A DNA stretch of 61,568 bases, filler included, from Jimgerdemannia flammicorona (Eukaryota): the NCBI GenBank assembly GCA_003990765.1. It is 2 parts of 2 records of this genome, joined end to end, with 100 filler letters (N's around TTAATTAATTAA, not from the genome) between each part and the next. Parts side by side here need not be neighbours in the genome. Positions count along the whole stretch, not along the records: positions 30,846 to 61,568 come from RBNJ01000427.1; 1 more part is not named here. One strand, 5' to 3'. Shown piece after piece: positions 2-49,750 of this stretch (within the stretch, counting starts at the first letter, position 1; every line of letters begins with the position of its first letter). The translations under genes and the position numbers were made by a program. The notes below the pieces were generated by a model. It was given only the letters and a program-made list of their open reading frames with translations. It did not search any database and was not told the origin of the DNA.

Positions 2-3000
2 GACTCAGAACCACCAAACCGAAGGAATGACACCCAGTACAAGAAGACTGAAGCCCATCCTGTTGAAGATTTTGAGGAAGCAAGCAACAGTGAAGACTAC
101 AGTGACCTAGACTTGTACCCTACCAAGATTACCACCTGAAAGACAGTCTATCCAATAGAGAAAAGAAAGAGACCTGTGGGAAGACCATCCAGGAACATCA
201 GCAGGAGAATTATTCAAGAAGAAGATGAAGAATATGAGGAGGAACAAGTTGAAACACCTCCCCAAACCCTTTCACCTTTCGTGCCCGAGATAAACGAGTT
301 GCCACCAGAAGATGAAGAAATGGAACAAGAAGAATGGGAACCTGCTGCTCCAAAGCCTAAGAAAAAGTATACCCCAAAGACCATGCCTAGAGACATTTAC
401 AATGAAGCCTGGCAGAAGATCCAAGAAGCCAAGATGGAAGTTCCTCTTTTGCAGTTCTTGCAATTGATACCAGCCGGAGTCCGAAACAAATTGCTGAGAA
501 CCACCAGGTCTAGCACTGGCCAAGTTCCAATCCCACAGCAAGAACCAGCTCCCATCCCAGTTCAAGCAGCTGAAAGACATGTCAGCACCTACTTACATGG
601 AGATATTGGAGGACAAAAAGTGAAAATCCTCATAGATACAGGAGCAGCTGTCTGTGTCATTGCCAAACGATTCCTGGACACCCTCCAATGGCCCATTGAT
701 GGACTATCCAACCTCAGCATCATAGTAGCAGATGGAGCCCGAACTCAACCCCTTGGAGAAGTACAAAATATCACCATCTCCCTTGGACACATTCAGTTCT
801 CCATCCCCAAAGCTGTTGTCACCGAAGCTGTCACCTATGACATAATTCTTGGTACCAACTGGATGAAGGAAATGAATGCAGTTGTCAATATTGGCCAACA
901 AGTACTCAAGTTTGACTACTGAGGCAAGAAGTATAGAGTTAAGGTGACCAGCTATGAGCAATCAAAGAAGAAAAAGAAGGTCACTATTCAGGAAGAGTAT
1001 GTCAGCAGTGAAGAATCTACTACAGAAGAGGAAGAAGAATCTGAAGATGGGAATGATCCCAGGCTCAATCCCTGAATCAACCTGGTGGATGACAGACCAG
1101 AAGACAATGTGTGGGCCAAAAACACTATCCCTATCACCATTGGAGCCATTGCAGGGGAAGGCAAAGGATGCCCTACATGCCTCAAGAGACACAAGTGTCC
1201 CAAGCACTCCTCCAAGATCATGGGAAAAAGGAAATCGCCTGGTGCAGCCTGCCCAGAATGCAGAAGAAAGAAGAAGAAATGCAGACATGTTCCAGAAACA
1301 CCTGCGACCAAAGCTACAGAAGTACAAGCAATTTGGGGTCAAGAATCATCTGAGGAAGAAGAAACTTCTGACCAAGAAGTTCCTGAACAAGAAGCACCTA
1401 ATGAAGAAGAAGTCCCTGAACTCATCCCCTGGGATGACCCTTGCTGGACACCACCTGAAGACAATGACCCCTGGAATATAGAGGAAGGACTCAGTACCAT
1501 CACCATTATCCCCAAGAAAGAAACCCACCAAGAGAAAGCTTTCTGGCTAGGAAGATGTCCACATCAAATGGTCTTCCACTCTCCCCAAGACTACTGCTAT
1601 CAGTGTCATCTGTTGGACCAACAAGAAAGATAGAGACCCCAGAGACCAGAACTCCCAACTACTCTTGCACAGTCCACCACCTTTCAAGAGGTCACCATAA
1701 GGTTACAAAGTCGATTTAGGGGACAAGGCTTCTTCACCCAAACAGAAATATACCCCTTGTCTACCCTTTCCCCAACCTATGATCAGGATGGGTACCGATT
1801 CCCAAGACAACAAGAGATAAATAGCCAGGAACATCATTTCCAAGCAATGGGATATTGCAACCATGGGAGACATCCTGATTGCTGAGACTGCAGACACCAG
1901 AAGATTCACCTCAGCCATGATGTTGCAGTACACACCTTGAAGAAAGGAGATAACCAAAGCCAGATCCGAAAAAGTCAGATTCGAAAAAGCCAGACCAAGA
2001 AGTCTGGAAAAAGAATCCTCAAGATCTACGATTTGGGAGAGGATATCCTAGCCCTCATCAGGCATGCAACCCACCAAGGATGGGCAGAAGATGCCACCAA
2101 CTTCATGGAAGCCCTTGACCCTACAGGAAAGAGGGGAATCAATTACCTCTGAGATCCCTCTACTGGAGCCAGATGGCCACACCTCAACCTTAGAGCTTGG
2201 AGGCTTTCTGCTAGTGAAGCTTCAGCCTTAGGAAAGCCTGAACTCAGCAAGGACATTGCCCAGTATACCCTGCTGCATCTCAAGGCCAAACTCCCGACCA
2301 AAGCCCACCCAGAGGATGTAGGATATGATCTTCACAGCCTAGAGGACGAATCCATCAAGCCTGGAAAAACCTTCATGGTCAGAACCGGATTGGCCATGCA
2401 GCCACCTCAAGGAGCTTATATTCAACTGACCTCAAGGTCTGGACTTGCCAGACAAGGAATAACTGTAGAAGGAGAAACCATTGACCCCGGATATACAGGC
2501 AAAATCAAGGTTATCCTACACAACAGCAGTGCAGAATGGCACTGAATCATTAGAGGACAGAAGATTGCCCAAGCAGTCTTCATGAAGGTCAAGACCCCAC
2601 AGTTACAAGAAGTCTCTGAACTAACTGAAGGAATAAGACAAGCCAAGGGATTTGGAAGTTCAGACAGGAAAGAGGTACACCTCCTTCAAGTCAACTGCCT
2701 CAAGAGGAATGTTCCCCAGCAAGTATACTGGCAACCAGTCAGACTATACAAGAATCTCATCCTGGAGCCTGGAGAACAAACCACCTTCGAAATATTTGCA
2801 CCACCCGACCCCAGAAACCTTTTCTTTGAACCCAAGGAAGATATCCCACACCTAGACATAGAGGGACACACATTCTCTGACAAGATGAACCCAGTACACT
2901 CCCGAGAAACCAACCAAAGTTGGGAGACCATCATCCTGCCAAAAGGAACCATCATAGGATATCTGGTGCCTTTTCTCAACCGAACTCATAGGGAAGTTTA

Positions 3001-3076
3001 TGAACTAAACCTACCAGGAAATGGCAAAAGGTCCCAGAAGAAAGGAAAGGCCCCTTTGCGACCCAGGAGACAGTGA
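2..3076 (+). pseudogene. E1 gag C-terminus / aspartic protease / uncharacterised domains / dUTPase polyprotein
   Basis: ORFs 176, 1085, 1937 and 2582 share one frame broken only by point stops. Protease motifs ILIDTGAAVCVI and DIILGTNW. Confidence 0.9.
2261..2662 (+). pseudogene. E1 dUTPase domain
   Basis: Manual translation: VGYDL, TSRSGLA, GETIDPGYTGKI, KIAQ, RQAKGFGSS match the five trimeric dUTPase motifs; one internal TGA. Confidence 0.92.
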
Positions 3077-4488
3077 AGCCTTCCACCAACATTGGAGAAG
3101 AATTGACACCTCAACAACAGCAACAACTAGTAGAACTTCTCAATAAATATCAAGATATCTTCACCACCAACTATGGCAACCTGCCATACAACCCATCATA
3201 TCACCACAGCATAAATACAGGAAGTGCAACACCCATCTGGCAGAAACTCTATAGAATACCCCATCACTTGAAAACATTCGAAAAGGAGCACATCCAAGAA
3301 CTCTTAGACAATGGAGTCATCCGACCCTCTACCAGCCCCTGGGCCAGCCCTATACTTATTGTGCCAAAGAAAGGAGGATAGAGACTCTGTGTGGATTATA
3401 GAAAACTCAACTTAGTCACTGAAAAGGATGCTTATCCTTTGCCCAGAATTGATGACCTTTTGGACCAGTTACAAGATGCCAGATATTTCAGCAGTATGGA
3501 CCTCTTCACGGAATTCCATGAGATCCCCATGGACCCCAAGGACATTCAAAAGACAGCCTTCCTTGCTCTAGGAAAATTGTTTGAATACCTCCAAATGCCC
3601 TTTGGACTTTGCAATGCACCACCCACCTTCCAGAGGATGATGAATTCAGTCTATGCCCCCTTGATCCACCACTGTCTGATTGTATACATAGATGATTCCA
3701 ACATCTATTCAGCAAATTTCAAAGAACACCTGCACTACCTAGAGGAATTATTCAAGCTCACCTGCAAGAATCACTTGAGACTGAATGCAAAGAAATGCTA
3801 CTTTGGAAAACAGAAACTCAAATTCCTGGGATTCATGGTCTTAAAAGAAGGAACTCATGCAGACCCAAAGATAACTGAGAAGATCAACAATTGGCCAGTA
3901 CCCAAGACTCCAAAGGAAACACTATCATTCTTGATGCTAGTATCCTACTACAGAAGGTTTATCAAAGATTTTGCCCAAATTGCTGCCCCAATCTGAATCC
4001 TTCTCAAGAAAGGAATGACATTCAAATGGACAGAATCACAGGAAAAAGCCTTCAGAGAACTCAAGAACCACATGACTACAGCACCAATCCTTGTGCGCCC
4101 CAATCTACAGAAGCCATTCATCTTGTATATAGATGCTTCTAAAGATGGCCTAGGAGCAGTTCTAGCCCAAGAAGGATCTGACCAACAGTACCACATGATA
4201 GCTTATGCAAGCAGAGCTACCAATCAGCAGCAGATGAACTATGGTAGCACCAAACTGGAATGCCTTGCAGTCATATGGGCAGTCACCCTGTTTAAGCATT
4301 ACCTCATCAGAAAAAGGTTCACCCTGATTACAGACCATGCAGTCCTCAAATGGCTATTCAACCGCAAGGAACCTGCTAGAATTCTAGCCTGCTGGATCCT
4401 TATCCTTCAGGATTACAAAATCACCATCATTCACAAAGCAGGGAAAGCCCACAACAATGTTGATGTACTTTTCCGCCAGCCCCAATGA
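3016..4488 (+). pseudogene. E1 reverse transcriptase + RNase H
   Basis: SPWASP, DYRKLN, YPLPRID, MPFGLCNAP, VYIDD; RNase H YIDAS, KLECLAV, TDH. In the -1 frame relative to the upstream ORF. Confidence 0.95.
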
Positions 4489-11502: not shown

Positions 11503-14500
11503 TCAGAGTGTCCTTGAGAGTGCATCGGCATTGGTGTTGGTCTTTTCTGAGCAGTGCAGTCATACTCTTGCAGCCTGTAGATCCATCTGGTATATATTCC
11601 TTTGGGGTTCAGAGTGTGGAATAGTCAGGCAAGAGCAGAGTGGTCTGTTTGAATAATGAAGTGTTTCCCAGCTAAGTAGTAGTGGAACTTGTCTACTGCC
11701 CAAACTACTACTAAGCATTCGAGCTTGCATGATTTGTAGTTCTGTTCTGCTCTGTAAGTACCTCGGCTTATATAGGAGATGACATATTCATATCCATCTT
11801 TCTTCTGAGCTAGGACTGCTCCAAGTCCTATAGCACTCATGTCTGTCTGCAGGATGAATTCTAGATTCCACTCTGATCTTCTGAGGATAGGTGCTTGGGT
11901 CAACCTGGTCTTGAGTTCATTGAAGGTTTCTTAGTACTCCTTGGTTTATTCGAATTTGGTCTCCTTCTTCAGTAGCTCGTAGATAGGTGCTGCAATATTG
12001 GAGTATCCTTTAATGAATCTTCTGTAGTAGCTGGCCAGTCTAAGGAAGGCATGGACTTCTGTAGTTGTTCTGGGTCTTGGGTAGGCTGCAATAGCCTTGA
12101 TCTTTATGGGGTCTGTGTAGATTCTGGTCTGGTTGATGAGGTGTCCTAGGTAGGTGATTTCTTGAGCTACAAACTTATATTTTTTGGGCTTGATATAGAG
12201 ACCATGCTCCTTGAGCTTCTTGAGGGCTAGCTGTATGTGATTGACATATTCCTGTATAGTATTGCTGAAGATGATCACATCATCAATATAGACAAAGAGC
12301 CATTTTCCAATCTCATTTCTGAAGACTCTGTTCATTATTTACTAAAAACTTGCTGGGGCATTGCATATTCCAAATGGCATTTGCAGGTAGATATAGGTAG
12401 CATCAGGTGTGATGAAGGCTGATTTCTCACTAGCATCTTGAGTGAGACCAATCTGATGGAAGTCTGAGAACAGATCTAAGATAGTATAGTATTTGGCTTC
12501 ACTTCTAAGGGTGGTAAGAATCTCTTGAATATTCAGCAAGGGCTGCCTATCCTTCTTGATGATGGCATTGAGCTTCCTATAATCAATGCAGAGTCTTGGT
12601 ACAAATTCTCCAAGTTTGCTTCCTTTCTTCAGGGCAAGGACAATGAGTGAAGCCCAGGGGCTGATAGCTTGCTTGATGATTCTGGCTTCTTCCATTTTCT
12701 TGAGTTCTGCTCACAGCCACTCTTTGTAGGTAGGTGGTATAGGTCTGGCTTTCTGGTAGATGGGCTTGGTATCACCAGTGTCAACTTCATAATAGTACTT
12801 GGGTTCTTGATTGTGGATATCCCTGAAGTCTGTAGCAAGTACTTCTTCATTCTGGTACAGGATCTTGAGAAGTTGTTCCTCCAGGGGAAAGTTTTCTCCA
12901 ATGGTATATGTGTGCTTGTTCTGGTCCTTATCTTTCTTGTGCTCAAGTTCAGTAATCTTGATAGCAGTATAGGCTCCTCTTCTAGTAGATCCAAAGCCTT
13001 GTTCTCCTCTCTTGGTCTTGATGAGTTTGATGGCTTTAATGATCTTGGGTTTCTTGATTTCATGGATCAGCATCTGGCCAATCCTGTCATACTTCTTGAC
13101 TTCAAAGGGGGTGGTGTGGTTGTAATTTCTGACTATGAGGAAGATCTCACCAGTGTAATTGGGGTCAATTACTCCTCCTTCAACTGAGATTTTGCTTTTG
13201 GCCAGACTGCTCCTGGTCTTGATAATTCTGGCATAGTTCTCTGGCAGCTTGACTCCAATTCCAATACCAAGTAGGGTGGTGGTCTGTGGTTTGAGGGTAG
13301 CATCTTAAATGCTGGCAAGGTCCATTCCTATGGCTCCTTCAGTCTTATATTCTGGGATCTTGGCTTTGGGGTAAAACTTCTTGATCTTGAGGGTGATGTC
13401 TGATTCTTGTTCCTCCTCATCATTACTGTCAGCTTGGAGCTCTGGGAGCTGGTCATCTTCTTTGGCTTTCCTTTTTGCTTTGGTGGCTTCTTGCTCATGT
13501 TTCTGTTGGTAGATTTTCCTGACTTCACTGATATAGGACCAGCAGTCATTCAGGTGTTCAGAGTAGTACATCCTAGTACCATGGGGGCATCTTCCTTGAG
13601 GGGCATAGCCATCAATGATCTTGTTATACCACTGGTCATCTGTGAGCTTGGGTGTCTTGTTCTTGTTCTTGTTCATCAAGTACATGAAGACCTCTGTGTC
13701 TTCTTCATCTCCATCCTCCATGTCTGGTAGAACTCCTTTGTGGACATTGATGGAGACTTGTACCTTTCTTCCTCTATAGTTGATCTGCATCTTCTGGGCA
13801 TTGAGATCAATGATGGCCTTGGTCTTGTGAAGCCATTGGTTGCCAATGAGGATGTCATAGTTGGTGGTGCTTGTAACAATCATATCTACTGGGATAGTAT
13901 CTCCTCCTATCTTGATGGAGACTTCTCAGATTTTGCCAAGGGGGGTAGCTTGTGTACTATCTGCTATAACATAGACCATCTTGGTGGACTCTTAAATGTC
14001 CCAGCCTAGGTGGTCAATTGCCTTCTTGCTCATGAGGCATCCTCCAGCACTGGTATCAATGATGGTATCAAAGATATAGTCTTCAATCTGACATAAGGTA
14101 TAGACTGATGTCTTGCACTAGTCTTTGGATTCTTCATCTGAGTTCTCAGATTCTTCCTGTGCATTGTGAGCTTCTACAATCTTGTACTCTTGATTCTTGG
14201 TGGTAATTGCAAGTCCTACTCTCAACTGCTGTCTGAAGGCAGGGACTTCAGCTAGCTGTCCAAAGATAGCATTGACTTTCTGTTCCTTGAGATCCTTGTA
14301 GATGTCATACTGATGGATCTTAGTCTTGCACAGCTTCTGTTCCTTCTTGCTTTTGCTTTCTCCTGAGACTGGGGTAGTGCCTTCAATAATTTGGCAGGCA
14401 GCTTCATCTAACTCCATATCTTGATCAATTTTCTCAGATTGGGTCTTACTTTGAATAGTGACAGCTGGGGTCTTCTTTAGTCTTCCAACTGGCTTGCTGT

Positions 14501-30745: not shown

Positions 30746-30845
30746 NNNNNNNNNNNNNNNNNNNNNNNNNNNNNNNNNNNNNNNNNNNNTTAATTAATTA
30801 ANNNNNNNNNNNNNNNNNNNNNNNNNNNNNNNNNNNNNNNNNNNN
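30746..30845. other. Assembly gap with artificial TTAATTAATTAA linker
   Basis: N44-TTAATTAATTAA-N44, exactly 100 nt; the linker gives stops in all six frames. Confidence 0.95.
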
Positions 30846-31647: not shown

Positions 31648-34600
31648 CTCACAGAAGCAGTAAGTGAAAAGTCAGCCTTTATAACTCCAGATAGAACATA
31701 TGTCTATCTGCAAATACCATTTGGAATATACAATACATCAGCCAGTTTCCAGCAAATGATGAACAAAATCTTCCACTATGATATGAGAAAATGGATGATG
31801 GTTTATGTTGATGATATAATCATCTACAGCTATACACTAGAAGAACTCTGCAGCACATCTAGCAGATAATAGAAAGACTGAGAAAGCATAGCCTATACAT
31901 CAAGCCTAAGAAGTGCAAGTTTGCAGAAATTGAGATCTCCTATCTTGATTATATTATCAACTAAGATAGAATACACACTGACCCCCTCAAGATACAAGCA
32001 GTAGCAGTATACCCAAGACCCACTATGGTTACTGAAGCTCAGGCCTTCATGGGACTCACTTCATATTACTGAAGATTTATTAGAGAATTTTTTAATATTA
32101 CAGGTCCAATCTATGAACTCAACAAGAAGGATACCAAGCTCCAATGAACTGGCAGGCAGCAACAAGTATTTGATGAGCTCTAGGTCAGACTGACCTAAGT
32201 ACCCATCCTTAGAAGAGCAGACTGGACCCAAGAATTCATCCTTCAGATGATGCAAGTGCACAAGAACTAGAAGTAGTCCTAGTTCAAAAGAAAGACAAAG
32301 TAGAGTATATCATTGTATATCTCAGCTGTAGAACCTGAGAAGCTGAAAAAGAATATGAATTATACAAGTTGAAGTACCTCACAGTTATCTGGACTATAGA
32401 AAAGTTCTACTACTATCTGGCCAGAAAATACTTTACTATTCAAACAAACCACTCAGCTCTTACCTGGCTACTGACCACTGGACAACTCAAGGGAATCTAT
32501 GTCAGATAGATCATGAAGTTGCAAGCCTATGATGTAACCATCATACAGTGCTCAGGAAGAACCAATGCCAATACAGATGCCCTCTCATGGACACTCTGAA
32601 GGACCCCCAACCAACAAACCAATAATGAATAAAGAGCTCTACTACAGAATTATCATATATCTGGGATAGTGAAAGATGCCCCAACATCTGGAAGAATGGA
32701 CACAAATGATTATCAACAGAATATAGAAACAATTCGAAACTGATGGAGAAATACTGAAGAAAGGAAAACTACTAGTCATACTAGAACACAAGAAGGAGTA
32801 AGCAATAAAATCAGTATATGAACTCAGCTATCTAGGAGGAACCAATATATATAATAAAGCAAAAAGAACAATATAGTGGTCAGGAATGGATGAAGATATC
32901 AGACAATTTGTCAAGACCTGTGACAAATACCAAAAATAGAAACAAGACTAATGAAATTAAGCCCCAGGATCAGTACACATAGAACCAGTGCTATTTGCCT
33001 ATGTTGCAATAGATGTAATTGGCTCTCTACCCTTGACTCTGACTGGCAACCAATACATCATTGTTATTGTAGACCTCTTCATAAAATGGATAGAGGCAGG
33101 ACCCCTCAAAGAAGCCAATGTACAGTCAATTACTGATTTCTTTCATGAAGAAATCATCTGCTGATTCAAGACCCCAATACAAGTAACCACAGACAGAGGG
33201 ACAGAATTCATGAACCAGTTCTTCGAGGTTCTCTACAAGAAGTATAAGATCCAGCATATTTGGACCACAGCCTATCACCCTCAAGGAAATGGATAAGTAG
33301 AAAGGACTAACAAGACCCTCAAAAATGTTATCACAAAGATCTGCAATAACTACAAAAACTGAGATCACTATCTGCCAATAGCATTATCTGCTCTCTGGGA
33401 TATCTGATTATAAAGCACCCACTTTATCTCTTGAGAAATGCAATTTGGAGAAGAAAGTTCTCAAGGAACTCTATTGTCCAATAGAGATGCTGTATAGAAA
33501 CACATGGATATGGAGATATGGAAACTACACCAAATCAAGAAGAAGGCTGAGGATTACATAAACAAGATACAGACACTACAGCAGAATAATACAGAAAATA
33601 TTCACAAGCCCCTGGAGATTATCAAGATAGGAGACAAAGTCCTAGTATATTGGAACATGGTAGAAGCTTTATGGTCATGAAAACTGGAGCCTAAGTGGGA
33701 AGGACCTTAACTTGTGCAAGATATAAAAGGGATCACCTTTTGGTTATGAAAACTCTCAGGCACAATCATTCCTACTACTATTCACCAAAACTGCCTCAAG
33801 AAGTATCATGACCAGTCAAAAAAGTAATGCTACTGCCCTCAAGATTACTAGTACTGCCCAGTAAGCCATAGAAAGACAGTAGTGTTCCACTGAGCCACCA
33901 ATGATAGAGAAATCCTTTGACAGTATCCAGAGTATAGTGCAAATATACCTATTACAAATCTCACATTTCAAGGCCTATCAGAACTAAACTAAGTTCCTGG
34001 AATACTTCAAGTTGGGACAGCTACTAAATTCAAAACTGAAGATGGAAAAAGAAGACTAGATCAAGAAATGTTAGCTCTCCTATACTCAAATTATAATTGC
34101 AAAAAGAGTGTACAAATTATTCAAGGATAATGAGTCAGCCTTAACCTATTTCCAAGAAGTAACTCCAGGAGACTTTGGATATATCAAGAGATAATATTAA
34201 AAGAACATAATGACACAAATTGCACAGTATAAGGAAATACAAATTATAGAAGCCTGGAAATTTGAGTGAATAGGATACTCCAGAGATGAATCACCTATTC
34301 AGGAGGAAGATATGATGGCTGATCCAAATTAGTAATATGAAATAGAGAAATTAGACATTTGATTATAATATTTGAATCTAATTTCCAAAATAGCTTAACC
34401 TTATAAATAGCAGTCATATTCTGCAAAGTGCAGAAACTTTACCATTTGCAAAGATTTAAGAGATGTTAGAATATTTGTAATTAGTACAATCCTAGCAAAT
34501 GTTAAAAGATTCAATACTTGTAAAATGACTCATAACTTAGCCACCTTATAAGCTAGTAAAACATATATAAATAATCTAGCATCTTAGAGTGAATAAACCT

Positions 34601-34778: not shown

Positions 34779-35178
34779 ATATTTATAGTTTATATATATA
34801 AGTCTACTATACATCAGTTATAACTACTAGTAAGGTATAGTTACTATTAGCTATAAGATGTAAGTAAGCCATTCTGCTCTCTTTAGCTACTTCTTTATAA
34901 GTCTGATAGTAATACTTCATATTATAGTTGAAGGTCCTATATTCTATATAAGATATATTTAATAAGTTTAAGAATAGTTTTAACTTAGAATAGTCTATTT
35001 CAGTAATACTATATACTACTTTAGTATATACTTAAAGGATTGACTTCATTGGTTCTCATTTGCTAGAAAACTACTTCTAGTACTCCAAATAAGTTAATTT
35101 AAATCAAATCTGAATTTGATTCATTATGTAATAGTTTGACCTAAATCTCAAATCTGAAACAATCCAAACTAACTTAAA

Positions 35179-35495
35179 TTAAAATTACTCTATCTGAATT
35201 ATTCAATCTAAATTACTTAATCTGAATTACTCAATCTGAACTACTCAATCTGAACTACTCAATCCAAATTACTCATTCTGAATTACTCTATCCAAATCAC
35301 TCTATTTAAATTACTCAATCTGAACTACTCAATTCAAACTACTCAATCCAAACTACTCAATCCAAACTATACAATCTGAATCATTCAATCTAAATTATTC
35401 AATCCAAATTATAATTCAAATCATTCAATTTGAATCATCTAATTCAAATTCTCTAATCTAAATTCTTCTATCTGAATCTTCTAATCTAAATTCTC
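35179..35495. repeat. 14-bp minisatellite (TCTGAACTACTCAA) x ~20, degenerate
   Basis: Tandem units read directly, e.g. 35221-35400. Confidence 0.88.
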
Positions 35496-37185: not shown

Positions 37186-39550
37186 TGTGATGTACACAAT
37201 TGACAATAGAGTACCGGTGACTGCTAAGATCAGACAACATAATGGCATGACAATCAAATAGACAGCCTGACCCATTAGGTGATCATCCCAAAAGAAGACA
37301 AGATGATCCAAGCCAAAATGAAGACCACATTATTTAAGGAACCATACTCTGCCTCAAGGATCAGCACCAAAGAACCAAGTACCCACCACACAATGCCTCC
37401 TATTCGCCGAACCAATCAGACCTCCTGCCGCTCTACCCCTTTGCCTGGCCCAAAGACCCTGATCTTTGAAGCTATCAAGAAGACCATCTGGCGCCCAGAT
37501 ACTTCCAAACACTTGAACTTCTATACTGAGGACGTTGGACACTTCATCAACTACCAGTATATAATGACCCAACAGCTCAAAGACACTACCGAACGAATGA
37601 CCCTCTGGCATGACTATGAAATCGGACACCACCTTCACAATGAGACTCAAGAAGGTGACCAGGAAGACCTCATTGCCGAAATGATAACCACCAGCCAGCT
37701 AATCAAGAGAGCCCTCTGTGTCCATCAAATCTTCTGCCATATTCCCTGGGCTATAGCACACTTACAAGGAGTGACAGCTGGCAGCCTCTCCCACCTTTCA
37801 ACTGAAGATGCTGACTGGATAGAATCTGAAGTAGCCAATGCTATTGGCAGCAACTGCATTGCCATAGGAAGCCAACAAACTGAACCTACTCAGCCAGGTT
37901 TCCACACCACCCCACTCTAAGACAACCATCAAGGTCACCTAATGAGTCTTATGGAGATATTTGAAGGACCGCCCATCACTATAGAGGCACCCATTGGAGC
38001 TACCCCAACCACCCACCACCCTGTCAGCCATAATTCACAGCTCATCATTTGGGAACCAAATTAAGAGGAGGCCCAAGAACTCCAAGACCCTGCCCCTGAA
38101 GAAACCCCCTCTGACACTGAAACTGATGAGCCTTCAGAAGAAGAAGAGGAGCAACAGAGAGTCTACCAGTCCTCTGTCCACATTCAAGCTGTTCAAGGGT
38201 TGGAGAATGTTGTTGAAGATGACTGGCCACTTTGCTACCCCCTCACCTCTTGGCCAGCACTTCCCCCCTTTGAGGAGAGATATGATGAAGAAGAAATCAC
38301 AACCCAGCAAGATTTGCCCACCACAGATGAAGGGTACTATTTCCTCTAGAGTACCATCCATCAGCTATGAGAACCCAGCTTTTGTCAGCAAGTCCGTTTC
38401 CAGCATTGCTACCCAGTACCACCATTTTCAGCATTTTGTCAGCAGGTCCAAATCCAGCATTGCCACCCTCCACAACCACTTCTGGCAACAATCATCATAT
38501 CATGTCAGCTCATCTGAATCCAGCATTGCTACCCAGTACCACCATTTTCAGCATTTTGTCAGCTCATCCGAATCCAGCGTTGCTATCCCCTATAACCCAA
38601 TCTGTAGTAAACAATGGCCTGCATCTCGCATTGTGCAAGCCAATAGCATAGCGAAGTTCACTACAATGTAGTATACCTTAGCCTTAGTCACGCCCCCTCC
38701 TCCATAGCTAGCAAACTTGTATAAATAACCCATATTCTTAGAGTGAATAAACCTCAGTCAGTTTGTGTTTAAAAGTAAAAGGAATTACAGAGAAACCACT
38801 GCCTCCAAGAGACCGGATAAATTCTGAGAATAAGATAACTAGAGCAACGATCGCTCGAGGTTTGAGTAAAAGAATTTTCTCTTGCCATGGAAAGAAAACA
38901 TTACCCGACCGCCGCCATTCGACTGCTATTTGAGACCCAAGACCCAGCCAAGGATTCAAGACCAGACTGCCATTCGGACTGCTATTCGGACTGCCATTCG
39001 AGACCCGAGACTCAGCCAAGGATTCAAGACCAGACCACCATTCAGACCACCATTCGGACCACACATTCAGACTGCCATTCGAGATTCAAGACCCAGAAAC
39101 CCAAGGATACCCAGACAAAGGATACTAGACTGCCAAAGACCAACCTGCTGCCAAAGACCTGAATGACCACCAGGAACCTAACAAGTTAAGATGGACAAGC
39201 AAGCCATCAACCTCTGTTTTTCCGAGCTACTGTGTCACGAACTGTTCAAAGTCAAGCCTGTCATCGCCGCCAAGTTATTCGCTGCCCTTTTCTACTAGAT
39301 ATTGAGCCATTGAACAATCAAACGACCTCATCCACTAAACAATTGAGCTGCCATCATTGAACAACCAAACATCCCCACCATCGATGTTCTGAGCCCTCTG
39401 ATGAACAATTGAATTCCTGCTATCAATTATTGCACATTTCGAATGACCTGTCACGTGACCAGCGACCTGTGAACGTCACCAATGCCTTCAGTTATACATC
39501 GCGTGCTTCACCAGTGGCACACATTAAGCCGTGCAGTCGAAGTTCATTAT
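37186..39550 (+). repeat. E4 5' LTR (last 17 bp missing)
   Basis: Near-identical to 47372-49733; TATAAA 38720, AATAAA 38746. Confidence 0.95.
37393..38349 (+). pseudogene. Accessory ORF in E4 5' LTR (318 aa consensus)
   Basis: ATG 37393 to TAG 38349; two TAA stops are CAA in the 3' LTR copy. Confidence 0.85.
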
Positions 39551-42500
39551 TGACCATTTGGCTCAAGAACCCAGCTATCTACAGTGGAGAACTTAGCAGG
39601 ACCAAGTCAGCAACCAAACCAGGGGCAGCAACAGCCCTCCTCAGCAGAAAAGAAAGCCCACACCCTTGTCAGAACAGTAGCCAGGACCCTATTCAACACC
39701 AGTAGCCAGAAAACCGAATCAGAAGAAAGAAGTGACCCAGATTACAGTTTGACTTCAAGAGAAAGGAGATGACTCAGAGGACAACCAGAACTGCCCCTTC
39801 AGATCCAAGACTTAGACCAAGAAGAAGAAGAGGATATCCCTGAGGAGTATCAGACCCTTATCCATAGGAAGAACTCAGACAGAAGCAACTACATAACTAC
39901 TGTTATCACTCGAGTCACTCCACTAGACCAAGTATACTTTGAAACATCAGAAGGAGAAGAGGACTATCATCCATATCAACCAGAACAAGATGACGATTGG
40001 GGATCAGACCATCAAAGGGATGAATTCAACCTATACTATTATCCTGACAGCAACACTGACCCACAACAAGGCGAACAAGACCTCACTACTTCACAACAGC
40101 AAGGGGCAGACGAACTCACTATCAGTTATATCAGTCCACTCCCACCATCAGTTGCTCAAACTTCAGTACCCTGGTCACTCACACCTCACCACTATCACCA
40201 GTCTATCAGAAGATCTCCACCACTACCCAGGACTTCAACCCCAGCATTAATTAGAAGAGCCAGATTACCCTCACCCTCACCAAGACACCCTCTGCCAGCA
40301 CCACTAGTTCATCAAGTACTAGTACCACCACCTTTCCCATCACCCCGAGGATCTGCCAGATCTCCTACCCCTGAACAATACTCAGATAGTGAAGATGAGC
40401 CAGACATGAGCTACCTTCAGAAGTTCCATGGTGCAGACAATGAAGATATCGAGGAATTCTTTGGAGAAATTGAAGTTCAAGCAGCTGCCAAACAATGGGA
40501 TGCTGCAAGAAAACTCAGAATCATGGAGTCACTCCTGAGAGGACCAGCCCTACAGAGGTATAATCAAGCCAAGCAAGCCGGAGGAGGAATCCATACAGAG
40601 GAACTGAATGATGGCCTTCAACCTGATAGGAACCATGTAGCAAGGTACATGATTCACAAAGCCTGGCTCCATGCCCAGTTCAATGGATTCGAGCGTCAAC
40701 AAGAAGCACAGGAGGCTTTGACCTATATGAGCCAAGCTGCCAATGAAACTCCCAAGAGTTTCTACCATCGGATTCAAGCTCAAATGATCAAGGTGAACCT
40801 TCAACCAGCAGTCCAACTGGCCCTAGCCTCAACTACCTTCCTCAATGGCTTATACCCAGAACTCTGAAGGCAAGTTATCAGGATGGGATATCGAAACATT
40901 GAACAGCAAGTTGCTGGAGCACAAGGATGTTGGGAAGCAGATTATAGACCAGTACAACAAGTACAAGGCTATCCTGAGCCAATCCAAGCTGAAACCCCAA
41001 GGACCTGAGGAACAACTATGGAGTAAGAGAATGCCTTCCTCAGAGCCCAGATAGCCAACTATGAGAACAGACCAGCATCCACAAATCCGACTCCATTCAG
41101 GCAATCACAGCAGCAGCCACCATCAAGAGTTCAAGAAGACCCTATGACAATGCTCACCAAGCAAATGAAGGACCTGGCCATCACGGTTACCCAGCTGAAC
41201 AACCAAGGTAGAAGACAACAAGACTACCATCATGATAACAGACCAGACTACTGGCAACAAGACAACAGAGGTCCTGCCCCCACACTACCAGCTGCAACTA
41301 CAGCCTCATCAGTGACTGGTTCCTATGGTCCCACCTGCTTCAGCTGTGGAAATCAAGGCCACATCCAGAGGAATTGTCCAAGGAACCAATCCACCCAGTC
41401 CAATGACAGAAATGTCAACCTCTTTCAGGTAGACAAAGAGACTCAGGAGATGGAAGAAGAAGCAGCCTGGCTCCATGGTCAAGAAGATGACATCTATCTG
41501 TACTTCGAGGTCTTTCCATCCAAGGTGACATGGGAAGCTGCCCCCGCAGAGACCAGAGGGCGAGGAAGACCACGAAGGAACCCCCCACCTCAACTGCCAG
41601 TAACTATATCCACAGGCAAGCATCCGTGGCATGGCTATTCTTCTTCAGACACTCCACAAGAACAGGGGAAGTGAGTTAGAAGAGATACTCCTGAACCAGA
41701 AGCCAGACCATCTAGGACAACCCCCAGCTCTACCCTGCAGACCTTGAAGAAGATGAGCATATGAGCATAAAATCTTCAGCTGATGAAATGCCCATCAGGA
41801 ATGAGAGACTACACCCCAAGGGACCAAGACACCGAAGAAGCAGCAAGCCCCATGCAGCAGCCTCACTTTGGGAACATATCCGCCTACAGAATGCTGGTCT
41901 TACAGTTGAGCAAGTCCTCAAGAATGCACCAGAGGTCAGGCGAAAATTCCTGAAAGAAGCCAAGGAAGATACCAAGAGACTTCCAGTCCAAGGACCACAC
42001 ACTCAAGAACCTAGCACTATCCACACAGTCCATGAGAGCCTGCGACACAAAAATCAATCTACAAGACTCGCTGATGGAAAAGTGCATGGTGAAAATGCCA
42101 GAATTCTCGTCGATACTGGAGCAGCAGTATGCATCATCACCCAAAGAATGTTGGAGCGAATTGGATGGGGAATAGATGAAGGAACCAAAGCAAGAGTTAT
42201 CATAGCTGATGGATCAGCTTCCACACCCCTTGGACTTGTCAGAGACATCCCCATTCAAGTTGGAAAGGCCCGCCTCAATGTACCCAAAGCCGTCGTGACC
42301 CCCACAACCTCCTATGACCTAATCCTGGGAACTGACTGGTTAAGCCGAGTGGGAGCCAATATAGATATCAAGAAACAACTCCTGGTCTTCTCCACTCATG
42401 GACAGAAGCACAAGGTGCCTATTGACTCGAAAGGATTATCTAAAAAGACGAATCAAGTCTTAGAAACAGAATGGCAAGGACATGGCAACACCCCCACTAC

Positions 42501-44406
42501 TACTGAGGATGAAAGCAAGGCCAATTTCCTACAAGAACTAGGAAGTGATTTCGATGCCCCAAGGGACCAAGAAAGCGAACAAGAAGACTCTTTCATTGGA
42601 GTTATTGGTGTTGAAGGCCTGGAAGAAAGCATTGATAGAGCCATTAATGTAAGGGCAGCACTTGAGTTTGCAGGACCTTCTGCTCAACCACCACCACCAC
42701 TGGTAGAAAATCAGATCATGCGAGCCTTTCATCGAGGCATATACGAACACTTCATTAGCTTCCACTCACCAAGAGATGATTGCAGCAATTGCCGAATCCT
42801 GGATCTCAAGAAGGTTCCAATGCCAGAAATTGATAACAAGGACAAATTGAAGCAAGCACCATCCTACAGCCAAATACAACCTCCAACCCCGAAGACCTTC
42901 AAGAAGACCTATAAGGAAGGACAGAAGATCCTCGCCCGCCAAACATTTGAGTCCCTTACCATCGAAGGAGAAAGCAACAGCTCTTACACTATCACTCAGG
43001 CCCTCCAGATCATACAGCCCACCTATGACAAGTATCGGAAGAGATTCCCTACCAGTAGGGAGGTCAAACAGTGAAATGAAGACTTTGTCAAGAAGAGACA
43101 TTGTGATTGTGGAAAAACCTTTATCTGCTACTGGTGTGAACATCGAGATATTCACCTCAGCGAAGATGTCTACAAGAGCCGAGTCAAGAGAAAGGACCCC
43201 ACCCTGCAAGAACCTCGAATTCGCTGGGCCTGTCAGAAGTGCAAAGAAATCAACCATAAAGGAGATTGCAAGTTCAAGAGCAAGACCTCTATCTGAGACC
43301 TACTATTGGAAGTTCTTGCCATCATTCGCTGGTACTGCCGCCCTCATCAAGGAAAAGAAGGTATCAATCTTGCCTTCATCGTTATGGAAGCTCTGGACCC
43401 TCTAGGAAAGACTGGATTCAATTACACAAGAAACTCAAAGATAGGAGCTCACTGGCCTTTCTTCAAACTGGAGTACATGGACTTCTTACCTACAATGGCA
43501 ACAGCTGAGGCGCCATTTCTCAAAGCTCAACCAATTATCCAGGTCAAGCTGCTTTCTCCCTGGGCACAGCCACCTCTTGCACAAACAGAAGGATCAGTTG
43601 GTTATGACCTCTGCCTCCCCTACCAAGCAAGAATCCGCCCCAGAAGTACCAGGACTTTTGACCTACAGATCACACTCGCTATACTACCTGGGCATTATGG
43701 ACAATTGGCCTCAAGATCCTCATTGGCAACCAAAGGAGTCACAGTAGAAGGAGGAGTCATTGATCAGGACTACCGAGGTCCCTTGAAGGTCATTATCTGC
43801 AATTCTAGTAGAGCCAGCCAATTCTTCAGTCCTATGGAAGCCATCTGCCAAATCCTGTTTATCAAGACATTACAGCCGACCATCCAAGAGGTAGACCAAC
43901 TAGAAGATACTAACAGAGGACAAGGAGGCTTTGGAAGCACCAATAGAAATCTACGAACACCACCTATCGAGGTTCATTTGGCAACAGTTGCTCAATTCTG
44001 ACAAATGAGACCCCACATCTGCCACCCAATCTGAGCAAGAGAAGACATCCTCCTGCAGCCCTACCAGCAAAAAGGCCTAGATGTGCACCTACCAGTAGAA
44101 GCAGACAACTTGATATTTGCACCATCACTGGAGCTTCAAAAGGAATACCACATCCTCCTGGCTGAAGAACGAATTCATGACCAGATGTCACCAATCCACA
44201 TCCCTATCAGAAACTTGGGCTTCGAAGTGATAACTATCCCCAAGGGAACAACACTGGGATATTTCGAACCATTGATAGACACCTACAAGGAAGAAGTCTT
44301 TGAATTCTTGGGAAATGGCAAGCCCTCTCTGGTGAGACTGATGGTACCAGGGAGGAAGACTCAGCAAATTCAGCAATCAAAGCCATCGACATCGAGACAA
44401 CTCTAA
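39551..44406 (+). pseudogene. E4 gag-PR-uncharacterised domains-dUTPase polyprotein (5' end deleted)
   Basis: Gag with CFSCGNQGHIQRNC knuckle, protease LVDTGAAVC/DLILGTDW, dUTPase; mostly CGA>TGA-type stops and one frame change near 41700. Confidence 0.92.
43540..43941 (+). CDS. E4 dUTPase domain (uninterrupted)
   Basis: VGYDL, ASRSSLA, GGVIDQDYRGPL, AICQI, RGQGGFGST. Confidence 0.94.
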
Positions 44407-45842
44407 TCAAGGACCAGTAACAACAAATACAGGAGTTGATAGAGGAGTACAAAGATATATTTACCACCACATATGATAACTTCCCACCATATCAATATGG
44501 AGAACACCCTATACATACTGGAGATGCAAGACCAATCTGACAATGACCCTACCGAACACCACATCATCTGATTGAATTCGAACAATAACACATAGACGAA
44601 ATGCTATAAAATGGAGTCATCAGACCATCATCAAGCCCCTGGGCCTCACCAGCAATCATAGTACCAAAGAAAGGAGGATGGAGATTAGTCGTGGATTTCA
44701 GAAAACTCAACAAAGTCACCACAGAAGATGCCTACCCACTGCCAAGAATTGATGACCTCATCAATGCCCTTGGAAAAGCCAAATACATGACCACTACCGA
44801 CCAGTTCCAAGGATTCCAAGTAATACCCATTGCCAAAGAAGATATCTGCAAGACGGCCTTCATCACCAGACGAGGACAGTATGAATACCTATGAATGCCC
44901 TTCAGACTCTGCAATGCACCCGCCTCATTCCAATGAATGATAAACTATGTCTACCGGGACCTCATTGGAAGAAATGTACTAGTGTACATAGATGATGTCA
45001 TCATCTACTCTGAGACATTCAAGCAGCATTTGCAAGATCTCCATGAAGTATTTGATACCATTCGAAATTCAGGACTCAGACTCAATGCCAAGAAGTGCTT
45101 CTTTGGAAAACATCAAGTCGAATATCTGGGATATGTTGTCTCAGCTCAAGGAACACATGCCGACCCCCGCAAGGTAGAGAAAGTCAAGAACTACCCAACC
45201 CTGACCTCAGCAAGGGAGACCCTATTCTTCCTTATGCTGGCATCCTACTATTGATGATTCATCCCAAGGTTTTTGGATAAGGCAGCACCTCTCCGAGATA
45301 TCTCCAAGAAGGACCAATCATTCTACTGGAAAAAGGAACAACAAAAGTCATTCGACCTACTCAAGAAGGCCCTTACTGAAGCCCCTGTCCTGGTGTGACC
45401 AGACTTTGGCAAACCATTCATCCTGGCAACTGATGTCTCAGCCTTAGGACTTGGATCAATTCTGTCTCAGCAAGATGACCAAAAGAGGGAGCATGTTATC
45501 GAAATGCTAGCAAGGCCACGAATGAAACACAAGTGAACTATGGAGCCACTAAGTTGGAATGCCTAGCAGTAGTTTGGGCTGTAGACCACTTCCAACACTA
45601 TCTCTTAGGAAAGAGATTCACCCTCATCACTGACCATCAAGCTACAATGGTTGTTCAATAAGCCGGAGCCCTCAGGAATCTTTGCTAGATGGATCATGTC
45701 CCTGCAAGAATATCAGTTCACTATTGTCTACAAGAAAGGTGCTAAGAATTCCAATGTTGATACTCTGTTAAGAATCCTGCGAAACCAACAAGAAGGGAAG
45801 GAGCCCCCACAAGAGAAGGCTGCTTCCTGCCCACCCAAATGA
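44310..45842 (+). pseudogene. E4 reverse transcriptase + RNase H
   Basis: SPWASP, DFRKLN, YPLPRID, VYIDD, ATDVS, TDH; in the -1 frame relative to the upstream ORF. Confidence 0.95.
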
Positions 45843-47371: not shown

Positions 47372-49750
47372 TGTGATGTACACAATTGACAATAGAGTAC
47401 CGGTGACTGCTAAGATCAGACGACATAATGGCATGACAATCAAATAGACAGCCTGACCCATTAGGTGATCATCCCAAAAGAAGACAAGATGATCCGAGCC
47501 AAAATGAAGACCACGTTATTTAAGGAACCATACTCCACCTCAAGGATCAGCACCAAAGAACCAAGTACCCACCACACAATACCTCCCATTCGCCGAACCA
47601 ATCAGACCTCCCGCTGCTCTACCCCTTTGCCTGGCCCAAAGACCCTGATCTTTGAAGCTATCAAGAAGGCCATCTGGCGCCCAGATACTTCCGAACACTT
47701 GAACTTCTACACTGAGAACCTTGGACACTTTATCAACTACCAGTATATAATGACCCAACAGCTCAAAGACACTACCAAATGAATGACCCTCTGGCATGAC
47801 TATGAAATCGGACACTGCCTTCACAATGAGACTCAAGAAGGCGACCAGGAAGACCTCATTGCCGAAATGTTAACCACCAGCCGGCTAATCAAGAGAGCCC
47901 TCTGTGTCCATCAAATCTTCTGCCATATTCCCTGGGCTATAGCACACTTGCAAGGAGTGATAGCTGGTAGCCTCTCCCACCTTTCAACTAAAGATGCTGA
48001 CTGGATAGAATCTGAAGTAGCCAATGCTATTGGCAGCAACTACATCGCTATAGGAAGCCAACAAACCAAACCTACTCAGCCAGGTTTCCACACCACCCCA
48101 CTCCAAGACAACCATCAAGGTCACCTAATGAGTCTTATGGAGATATTTGAAGGACCACCCATCACTATAGAGGCACCCATTGGAGCTACCCCAACCACCC
48201 ACCACCCTGTCAGCCACAATTCACACCTCATCATTTGGGAACCGAATCAAGAGGAGGCCCAAGAACTCCAAGACCCTGCCTCTGAAGAAACCCCCTCTGA
48301 TACTGAAACTGACGAGCCTTCAGAAGAAGAAGAGGAGCAACAGAGAGTCTACCAGTCCTCTGTCCGCATTCAAGCTATTCAAGGGTTGGAGAATGTTGTT
48401 GAAGATGACTGGCCACTTTTCTACCCCCTCACCTCTTGGCCGGCACGTCCCCCCTTTGAGGAGAGATATGATGAAGAAGAAATCACAACTCAGCAAGATT
48501 TGCCTGCTACGGACGAAGGGTACTATTTCCTCTAGAGTACCACCCATCAGCCATGAGAACCTAGCTTTTGTCAGCAAGTCCATTTCCAGCATTGCTACCC
48601 AGTACCACCATTTTCAGCATTTTGTCAGCAGGTCCAAATCCAGCATTGCCACCCTCCACAACTGCTTCTGGCAACAATCATCATATCATGTCAGCTCATC
48701 CGAATCCAGCATTGCTACCCAGTACCACCATTTTCAGCATTTTGTCAGCTCATCTGAATCCAGCATTGCTATCCCCTATAACCCAATCCATAGTAAACAA
48801 TGGCCTGCACCTCACATTGTGCAAGCCAATAGTATAGCGAAGTTTGCCACAACATAGTATACCTTAGCCTTAGTTGCGCCCCCTCCCCCATAGCTAGCAA
48901 ACTTGTATAAATAACCCATATTCTTAGAGTGAATAAACCTCAGTCAGTTTGTGTTTAAAAGTAAAAGGGATTACAGAGAAACCACTGCCTCCAAGAGCAG
49001 ATAAATTCTGAGAACAAGATAACTAGAGCAACGATTGCTCGAGGTTTGAGTTAAAGAATTTTCTCTTACTATGGAAAGAAAACATTACCTGACCACCACC
49101 ATTCGACCGCCATTCGAGACCCGAGACCCAGCCAAGGATTCAAGACCAGACCAACATTTGGACCACCATTCAGACCGCCATTCAAGACCCAAGACCCAGC
49201 CAAGGATTCAAGACCAGACCGCCATTCGGACTGCCATTCGGACCACGCATTCAGACTGCCATTCGAGATTCAAGACCCAGAAACCCAAGGATATCCAGCC
49301 AAAGGATACTAGACTGCCAAAGACTGACCCACTGCCAAAGACCCGAACGACCGCCAGGAACCTAACAAGTTAAGATGGATGAGCAAGCCATCAACCTCCA
49401 TTTTTCTGAGCTACTGCACCATGAACTGTTCAAAGTCAAGCCCATCATCACCACCAAGTTATTCGCCGCCCTTTTCCACTGGATATTGAGCCATTGAACA
49501 ATCAAACGACCTCATCCACTAAACAATTGAGCCACCATCATTGAACAACCGAACATCCCCACCATCGACATCCTGAGCCCTCTGATGAACAATCGAATTC
49601 CCACTATCAATTATCGCACGTTTCGAATGACATGTCATGTGACCATCGCCCGCGAACGTCACCAACGCCTTCAGTTATACATCGCGCGCTTCACCAGTGG
49701 CACACATTAAGCCGTGCAGTCGAAGTTCATTATACATAACTGACACCACA
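47372..49750 (+). repeat. E4 3' LTR (2379 bp)
   Basis: TGTGATG...CACCACA, duplicate of the 5' LTR. Confidence 0.96.
47579..48535 (+). pseudogene. Accessory ORF in E4 3' LTR
   Basis: Same ORF; ATG>ATA and one CGA>TGA, otherwise open (47783-48535). Confidence 0.85.

Follow-up and report, generated by a model that had tools for sequence, protein, structure and literature searches.

How does a retroelement express its reverse transcriptase (RT) when the RT reading frame lies one base back from the frame that precedes it? The question is raised by E4, a long terminal repeat (LTR) retroelement in a 61,568-nt stretch of Jimgerdemannia flammicorona DNA (NCBI GenBank assembly GCA_003990765.1). This whole stretch, hereafter the window, joins parts of two records of the genome with 100 filler letters between them, and E4 lies in the part from RBNJ01000427.1 (positions 30,846 to 61,568). 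E4, a second element of the window (E1), and their relatives are a rare Ty3/gypsy-type (Metaviridae-type) LTR retroelement lineage. The answer that we consider likely, judging from sequence, is a conserved programmed -1 ribosomal frameshift on a G-GGA-AAY heptamer ahead of RT-RNase H.

The reading frames of E4 define the problem. The protease (PR; 41716..43071, Pfam gag-asp_proteas, E 3.3e-14), the dUTPase (43297..43998, Pfam dUTPase, E 5.9e-30), and the open reading frame (ORF) behind it (44035..44403) are all in frame mod3=1 on the plus strand, whereas RT-RNase H (RT-RH; 44304..45776, plus strand) is in mod3=0, that is, in the -1 frame. The last -1-frame stop before the site is a TGA (44301..44303). 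It is followed on the same strand by the slippery heptamer G-GGA-AAT (44310..44316), a 7-nt spacer, GGCAAGC (44317..44323), and, 29 codons past the heptamer, the zero-frame TAA (44404..44406) that closes the upstream frame, ORF1. An earlier sequence-only reading of the window had proposed this heptamer and this spacer, and both stand: the heptamer is in frame with protease-dUTPase and is the sole strict in-phase X-XXY-YYZ (GGGAAAT) in the ORF1/ORF2 overlap (44304-44403, with the phase anchored on ORF 44035-44403). By our inference, some 0.13 in-phase sites of this form would be expected per 33-codon overlap. Counted on both strands of the 61.5-kb window, GGGAAAY occurs 5 times against 17.2 expected from shuffles.

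The same reading had the -1 frame opening after the TGA at 44301 and running into RT. The frame is the right one, but it is not open: 7 decay stops interrupt the 316 codons of 44304-45251, and 4 stops fall between 44304 and 44606. E4 is therefore a dead copy, with many stops that are mostly of the C-to-T type. This invites a simpler explanation, in which the frame change is an indel acquired by dead copies, and the heptamer and the stem behind it are coincidental. Besides the stops, that explanation could draw on a local frame disturbance in the E4 RNase H (~45520-45660) and on the gag and protease frames of E4, which also differ and have no slippery site between them. The evidence on the other side comes from relatives of E4.

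The first of these is E1, in which the dUTPase and the domain behind it (2153..3073, plus strand, Pfam dUTPase) occupy mod3=2 and RT-RNase H (3004..4485, plus strand, Pfam RVT_1 2.7e-28 and RT_RNaseH 7.2e-36) occupies mod3=1. The claim that E1 shares the -1 offset, with A-GGA-AAT at 3016, is thus upheld. This homologous heptamer (3016..3022, plus strand) opens AGGAAATGGCAA at 3016 and lies in an overlap (3004-3073) bounded by a -1-frame stop at 3001-3003 and a zero-frame stop at 3074-3076; in both E1 and E4 the frame change falls at the same GGAAATGGCAA. Identity between the two elements is 46-52% for RT and 33-34% for dUTPase plus spacer domain; at the DNA level it is 65% across 1173 nt of RT. 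Because E1, only ~50% identical in RT, shifts frame at the same block, the -1 offset, on this comparison, is not a private indel of E4.

Similarly, the layout is found in L001, a metagenome contig of 4101 nt and the only related locus in a scan of metagenomes. Its RT-RH is 82.6% identical to that of E1 and, by tblastn, matches E4 in one frame at 49% identity over 496 positions. Here, G-GGA-AAC (1322-1328) is in phase, has a -1-frame stop 13 nt upstream, and is the sole strict in-phase X-XXY-YYZ of the overlap (1310-1379). The -1 ORF of L001 (1310-2791; Pfam RVT_1 1.1e-32, RT_RNaseH 2.9e-38) is an intact 494 aa, and the first Met of this ORF falls within the RT core, with no ATG ahead of that core. 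The offset and GGAAAY are thus kept in 3/3 DNA copies (E4, E1, and L001), which have in common an 11-nt block, GGAAAYGGCAA, including the GGCAA of the spacer, between poorly conserved flanks. Searches for related loci with the junction alignment, P0017, or P0003 (two proteins described below) gave no match in viral contigs or genome contigs.

Protein databases supply intact versions of ORF1. With E1 ORF 2546-3073 as query, HMMER searched 1.84 billion representatives exhaustively and returned only 3 clusters, so the lineage is rare in current databases. P0017 is an unbroken ORF of 1343 aa, with a CCHC motif seen in the sequence and protease and dUTPase found by Pfam; its residues 312-1343 match E1 in one frame at 68% identity. 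P0003 is an unbroken ORF of 1179 aa with zf-CCHC, protease, and dUTPase by Pfam, and is 38% identical in the spacer region. Both carry gag-PR-dUTPase and the post-dUTPase domain in a single frame that ends just past the site: P0017 at the residue matching the stop of E1, and P0003, like P0004 (312 aa), 30-45 residues past the aligned site. All seven E1-family proteins that cover the site (P0001, P0009, P0011, P0013, P0017, P0002, and P0022) keep Gly-Asn there, and six end at the residue matching the stop of E1, with P0013 ending a few residues earlier. Conservation across copies, on which the earlier proposal turned, is therefore found in the offset and motif of the three DNA copies and in two intact ORF1s that end just past the site.

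Sequencing runs, most of them soil metagenomes, also bear on indels. Ten runs contain part of the stretch, eight of them labelled soil metagenome and none listed as an RNA run, and contigs of four runs, aligned at 80% likeness, gave 185 pieces (X4 and X5 miss 44305-44438). The X1 pieces number 20 at ≥99% likeness, 66 at 95-99%, 57 at 90-95%, and 11 at <90%. Among the matches listed, two contigs bridge the heptamer, each with 0 gaps: X2 record 12 (44140-44383, 7 differences) and X1 record 3 (44245-44354, 19 differences, ~83% alike). Among the variants listed for the 185 pieces, none is an indel in 44100-44600; the only indels listed lie at 44684/44690, where one X2 contig has two that compensate each other. 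With the offset shared by E1, E4, and L001, two ORF1s ending intact at this point, an intact RT-RH in the -1 frame, and no indel at the site in aligned contigs, we regard mutational decay as a very improbable source of the frame change.

Where exactly does the shift lie? The sequence-only reading had placed it after dUTPase and directly before RT. It does precede RT, but a conserved domain of ~120 aa separates dUTPase from the site, at 44035-44300 in E4 and 2660-3010 in E1. In E4 this spacer domain and the ORF1 tail, with the heptamer inside, form the zero-frame ORF 44035..44403, which aligns with E1, P0003, P0004, and P0017. The domain is common to E1, E4, P0003, P0004, and P0017 and absent from elements of the E2 type. 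Its invariant residues are only a few Pro, Gly, Phe, Asp, and Asn, and Pfam has no family for it.

The E2-type elements show what the arrangement looks like with no shift. In E2 (minus strand, 14063-11553), protease, dUTPase, and RT share one frame, as had been claimed; dUTPase leads almost straight into RT and there is no spacer domain. Among 120 listed relatives of the L001 RT-RH, four proteins (P0068, P0108, P0125, and P0140; 44-47% identical to L001) likewise combine dUTPase and RVT_1. These in-frame elements are a sister lineage lacking the spacer domain, and they do not refute the shift; since that sister lineage is in frame, the shift is lineage-specific. E2 has a GGGAAAC (11663-11669, minus strand), ~100 nt before the end of RNase H and near a frame change within RNase H.

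Granted that the ORF boundary is real, ORF2 could still be expressed by another route: from a spliced or subgenomic mRNA, of which foamy-virus Pol is an example, by non-AUG internal initiation, or by a slip elsewhere in the overlap. The integrase of the same elements seems to use a stop-start overlap with no frameshift, no stimulatory structure is clearly conserved, and CCCTTTG at 3052 gives E1 another strict heptamer, all of which leave some room for such a route. CCCTTTG, however, is absent from L001 and E4, and the in-phase G-GGA-AAY with GGCAA is the only conserved block across the junction. Internal initiation at an AUG would find none before the RT core in the L001 ORF2, and we know of no way for RT to enter the particle without a fusion to Gag. 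On balance, these other routes seem unlikely to us, and slippage at G-GGA-AAY is the reading that we carry forward.

Is the slip stimulated by RNA structure? In E4, the minimum free energy fold (ViennaRNA) gives a candidate hairpin at 44324..44355 (plus strand), with an 11-bp stem and a 10-nt loop. One arm, CCTCTCTGGT(G), spans 44324-44334, and the other, (T)ACCAGGGAGG, spans 44345-44355. The stem that had been described lies where it was placed, after the 7-nt spacer, but it has 11 bp with two G-U pairs and not 10 bp with one. When the 45 nt after the spacer are folded (-17.4 kcal/mol), only 0.16% of 2549 windows from the interior of E4 itself do as well. At the same distance of 7 nt, L001 forms an interrupted and weaker stem, GGUCACAGA/UCUGCGACC (-10.8 kcal/mol, in the top 2% of 1349 of its own windows); the E1 fold is unremarkable. 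Folding thus favours the E4 hairpin in comparison with the rest of the element, but not significantly in comparison with shuffles.

The shift may be real and the E4 hairpin not its stimulator, the work being done by another structure, a pseudoknot, a trans factor, or the heptamer alone at low efficiency; we give this about an even chance. The hairpin sequence is private to E4, E1 and L001 have only the weaker interrupted stem (GGUCxCAGA/UYUGxGACC), and the shuffle tests are not significant. Against this, known stem-loop stimulators have comparable spacings and stem lengths, the best local structure of both lineages lies at the same distance from the heptamer, and the single 3'-arm difference between E1 and L001 turns a G-C pair into a G-U pair and so keeps the pairing. 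A structure ~7 nt past the heptamer is, on these folding models, plausible in both lineages. The loop-downstream pairings that would make pseudoknots are only 5-6 bp (44339-44344/44383-44388 in E4; 1353-1357/1384-1388 in L001), and we do not rely on them.

It is important to set out together the points that weigh against a programmed shift at this block, or against its hairpin. E4 and E1 are both dead; elsewhere in E4 (~45520-45660), the frame is truly disturbed at least once. The E1 heptamer, A-GGA-AAT, differs from the strict form in its first base. Gly-Asn is missing at the aligned place in P0003 (L-G-K) and P0004 (I-K-K). Junction DNA was read in three copies, two of them from one family, with P0003, P0004, and P0017 represented by protein only, and the metagenome contigs inform on gaps at the site, not on the identity of the heptamer letters. 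As for structure, the E4 segment is matched by 6.8% of 500 dinucleotide shuffles (z -1.72), and the corresponding shares are 22% for L001 and 74% for E1; folds of 91 nt give z values of -0.62 and +0.50; neither E1 nor L001 has the stem sequence of E4; and an Rfam search of both junctions gave no meaningful match.

We propose the following scheme for active members of the lineage. ORF1 encodes Gag, protease, a Cys-rich linker, dUTPase, and the further ~120-aa domain, and ORF2 (RT-RNase H), which has no start codon of its own, overlaps the end of ORF1 in the -1 frame. Some of the ribosomes on ORF1 would slip one base back at G-GGA-AAY, the P-site Gly-tRNA re-pairing from GGA to GGG and the A-site Asn-tRNA from AAY to AAA, probably stimulated by a hairpin or other structure ~7 nt past the heptamer. 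Slipped ribosomes would read on into RT-RH and make a Gag-PR-dUTPase-RT-RH fusion, and the others would stop 17 codons later (E1 and L001) or 29 codons later (E4). The outcome would be Gag, protease, and dUTPase in bulk and a rationed polymerase. We infer the slip, its efficiency, and the role of the hairpin from the frames, the motif and its phase, its conservation, and the intact ORFs of relatives.

That Gag-PR-dUTPase is made at the level of Gag and only RT-RH is rationed had already been suggested, and for the lineage this is what the shared offset, the intact ORF1s, the frame of L001, and the gap-free contigs point to. The suggestion holds for P0017 and P0003, each a single ORF, but not for E4 as it stands, in which gag and protease are in different frames. 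The gag (mod3=2) and protease (mod3=1) frames of E4 differ by -1 at 41640-41800, and both contain stops. P0017 and P0003 have gag and protease in one ORF, so an indel acquired during decay probably accounts for the difference. We considered a second programmed shift at this gag/protease junction of E4 and rejected it, since the junction lacks both an in-phase heptamer and a clean overlap, and P0017 and P0003 are in one frame here. The linker between protease and dUTPase is rich in Cys and His (~690-740 and 880-900 in P0017; ~1100-1900 in E1). Its CxxC...H and C...C motifs recur in P0017, P0003, and E2-type proteins and have no Pfam match. P0005 and P0007 are unrelated dUTPase carriers and were set aside.

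Which known systems does this resemble? In alpharetroviruses (avian sarcoma/leukosis virus), the protease is translated in the Gag frame, and RT and all that follows it are rationed by one -1 shift, at X-XXY-YYZ with an RNA structure. The E4/E1 lineage is alike in where it places its protease and in the one -1 shift proposed ahead of RT. It differs in that its ORF1 adds dUTPase and an extra domain, its integrase is outside the RT frame, its heptamer is another one, and its members are Ty3/gypsy-type retrotransposons and not retroviruses. The sequence-only reading had likened the site to the betaretroviral pro-pol shift, a comparison that we would replace: with one shift only, alpharetroviral gag-pro/pol is the nearer analogue. 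Betaretroviruses such as mouse mammary tumour virus and Mason-Pfizer monkey virus have gag, pro, and pol, two shifts, and dUTPase before protease, with pro-pol joined by -1 slippage. Both systems have dUTPase ahead of the shift into pol, but in P0017 and P0003 gag-PR-dUTPase is one ORF, dUTPase comes after protease, and there is no second, gag/pro shift. The presence of dUTPase in betaretroviruses is mentioned in PMC2774666.

The heptamer has precedents as well. G-GGA-AAC is used by PEG10 and by luteo/poleroviruses; L001 has this very heptamer, and E4 the near-identical G-GGA-AAT. According to PMC5009743, G_GGA_AAC is among the heptamers most prone to shifting on mammalian ribosomes; the same paper describes PEG10 as descended from a Ty3/gypsy element, with a -1 frameshift that involves a pseudoknot. 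Unlike the shift described here, that of PEG10 sits between gag-like and protease-bearing parts.

A dUTPase between protease and RT, as in this lineage, is known from Ty3/gypsy elements of basidiomycetes, Tuber, and bdelloid rotifers (PMC2864245 and PMC5408684, in the portions available). For the rotifer elements those portions give the usual gag-pol shift and describe none after dUTPase, and the word "frameshift" occurs 0 times in the available text of PMC2864245. Our literature search, outside which lay the survey of Gao and co-workers (2003) and some supplements, found no account of a shift after dUTPase. The mechanism itself is thus a familiar one, and what is unusual here is its position.

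The position of a recoding signal sets the ratio of retroelement proteins. If the scheme is right, protease and dUTPase would be Gag-like in amount and only the polymerase would be rationed, a layout that retroviruses reached independently, alpharetroviruses for protease and betaretroviruses for dUTPase. The heptamer with the ~45 nt behind it would be a compact natural cassette for G-GGA-AAY slippage. Gene finders and transposon annotators that assume pol to be one ORF will cut these elements in two or join them wrongly.

How, then, is integrase made? In E4 (45839-45842), E1 (4485-4488), and L001 (2791-2794), the TGA that stops RT-RNase H overlaps an ATG in the -1 frame (ATGA), and this ATG opens an integrase ORF that begins Met-Asn-Gln in all three. 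The short overlap between RNase H and integrase contains no in-phase slippery heptamer in E4, E1, or L001. In E2 (~11480, minus strand) and in an element at 31.6-33.8 kb (~32620-32630), the RNase H TGA comes after LS[RW]TL and is followed by TAA. The integrase of these two begins M-N-K-E-L-Y-Y in the +1 frame, adjoining the RNase H stops (AATGAATAA), so that stop and start take the form ATGAATAA or are separated by a short gap. P0068, P0108, P0125, and P0140 each reach only just past RNase H, and many PR-RT-RH proteins among the listed relatives of the L001 RT-RH have no integrase domain.

Because of these ATGA and +1 starts, the proteins ending after RNase H, and the relatives lacking an integrase domain, integrase looks like a separate AUG-started ORF across the clade. 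It is perhaps made by termination-reinitiation or a similar route and, as an AUG ORF coupled to the RNase H stop, would be made free of Gag. We put forward tentatively, and with more doubt than belief, a three-ORF Ty3/gypsy clade in which a -1 shift would ration RT-RH and a stop-coupled AUG ORF would supply Gag-free integrase. Our search of the literature found no description of a separate integrase ORF, or of such an expression plan, in LTR retroelements. If confirmed, an integrase start coupled to the RNase H stop would be more unusual than the shift, and it may be the more novel of the two.

Approximate limits of the E4 LTRs are 37186..39550 (5') and 47372..49733 (3'), both on the plus strand; they are ~2.4 kb each, 90-97% identical, and are paired through direct repeats D2, D3, D5, and D7, which lie ~10185 nt apart. 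Pfam places a zinc knuckle at 41027-41671 (plus strand) and RVT_1 at 44610-44891 and 44937-45251, with RNase H (RT_RNaseH) and integrase further on. Within the LTR pair, the domain order of the lineage is that of Ty3/gypsy: zf-CCHC, aspartyl protease, RVT_1, RT_RNaseH, Integrase_H2C2, and rve.

The decay of E4 consists mostly of transitions; in repeat D7, the two LTRs differ by C/T changes at CpG sites. Compared with the soil-metagenome copies, the window copy mostly has T or A where they have C or G; changes from the window copy to X1 are T>C 30 and A>G 14, against C>T 12 and G>A 12. This pattern fits methylation-linked C-to-T decay of the window copy. Two runs of 44 N (30746-30789 and 30802-30845), ahead of the RBNJ01000427.1 part, were noted as assembly gaps or masking. 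Just upstream of E4, at 35154-35433, lies a tandem array of ~20 units with a 14-nt period (family D1).

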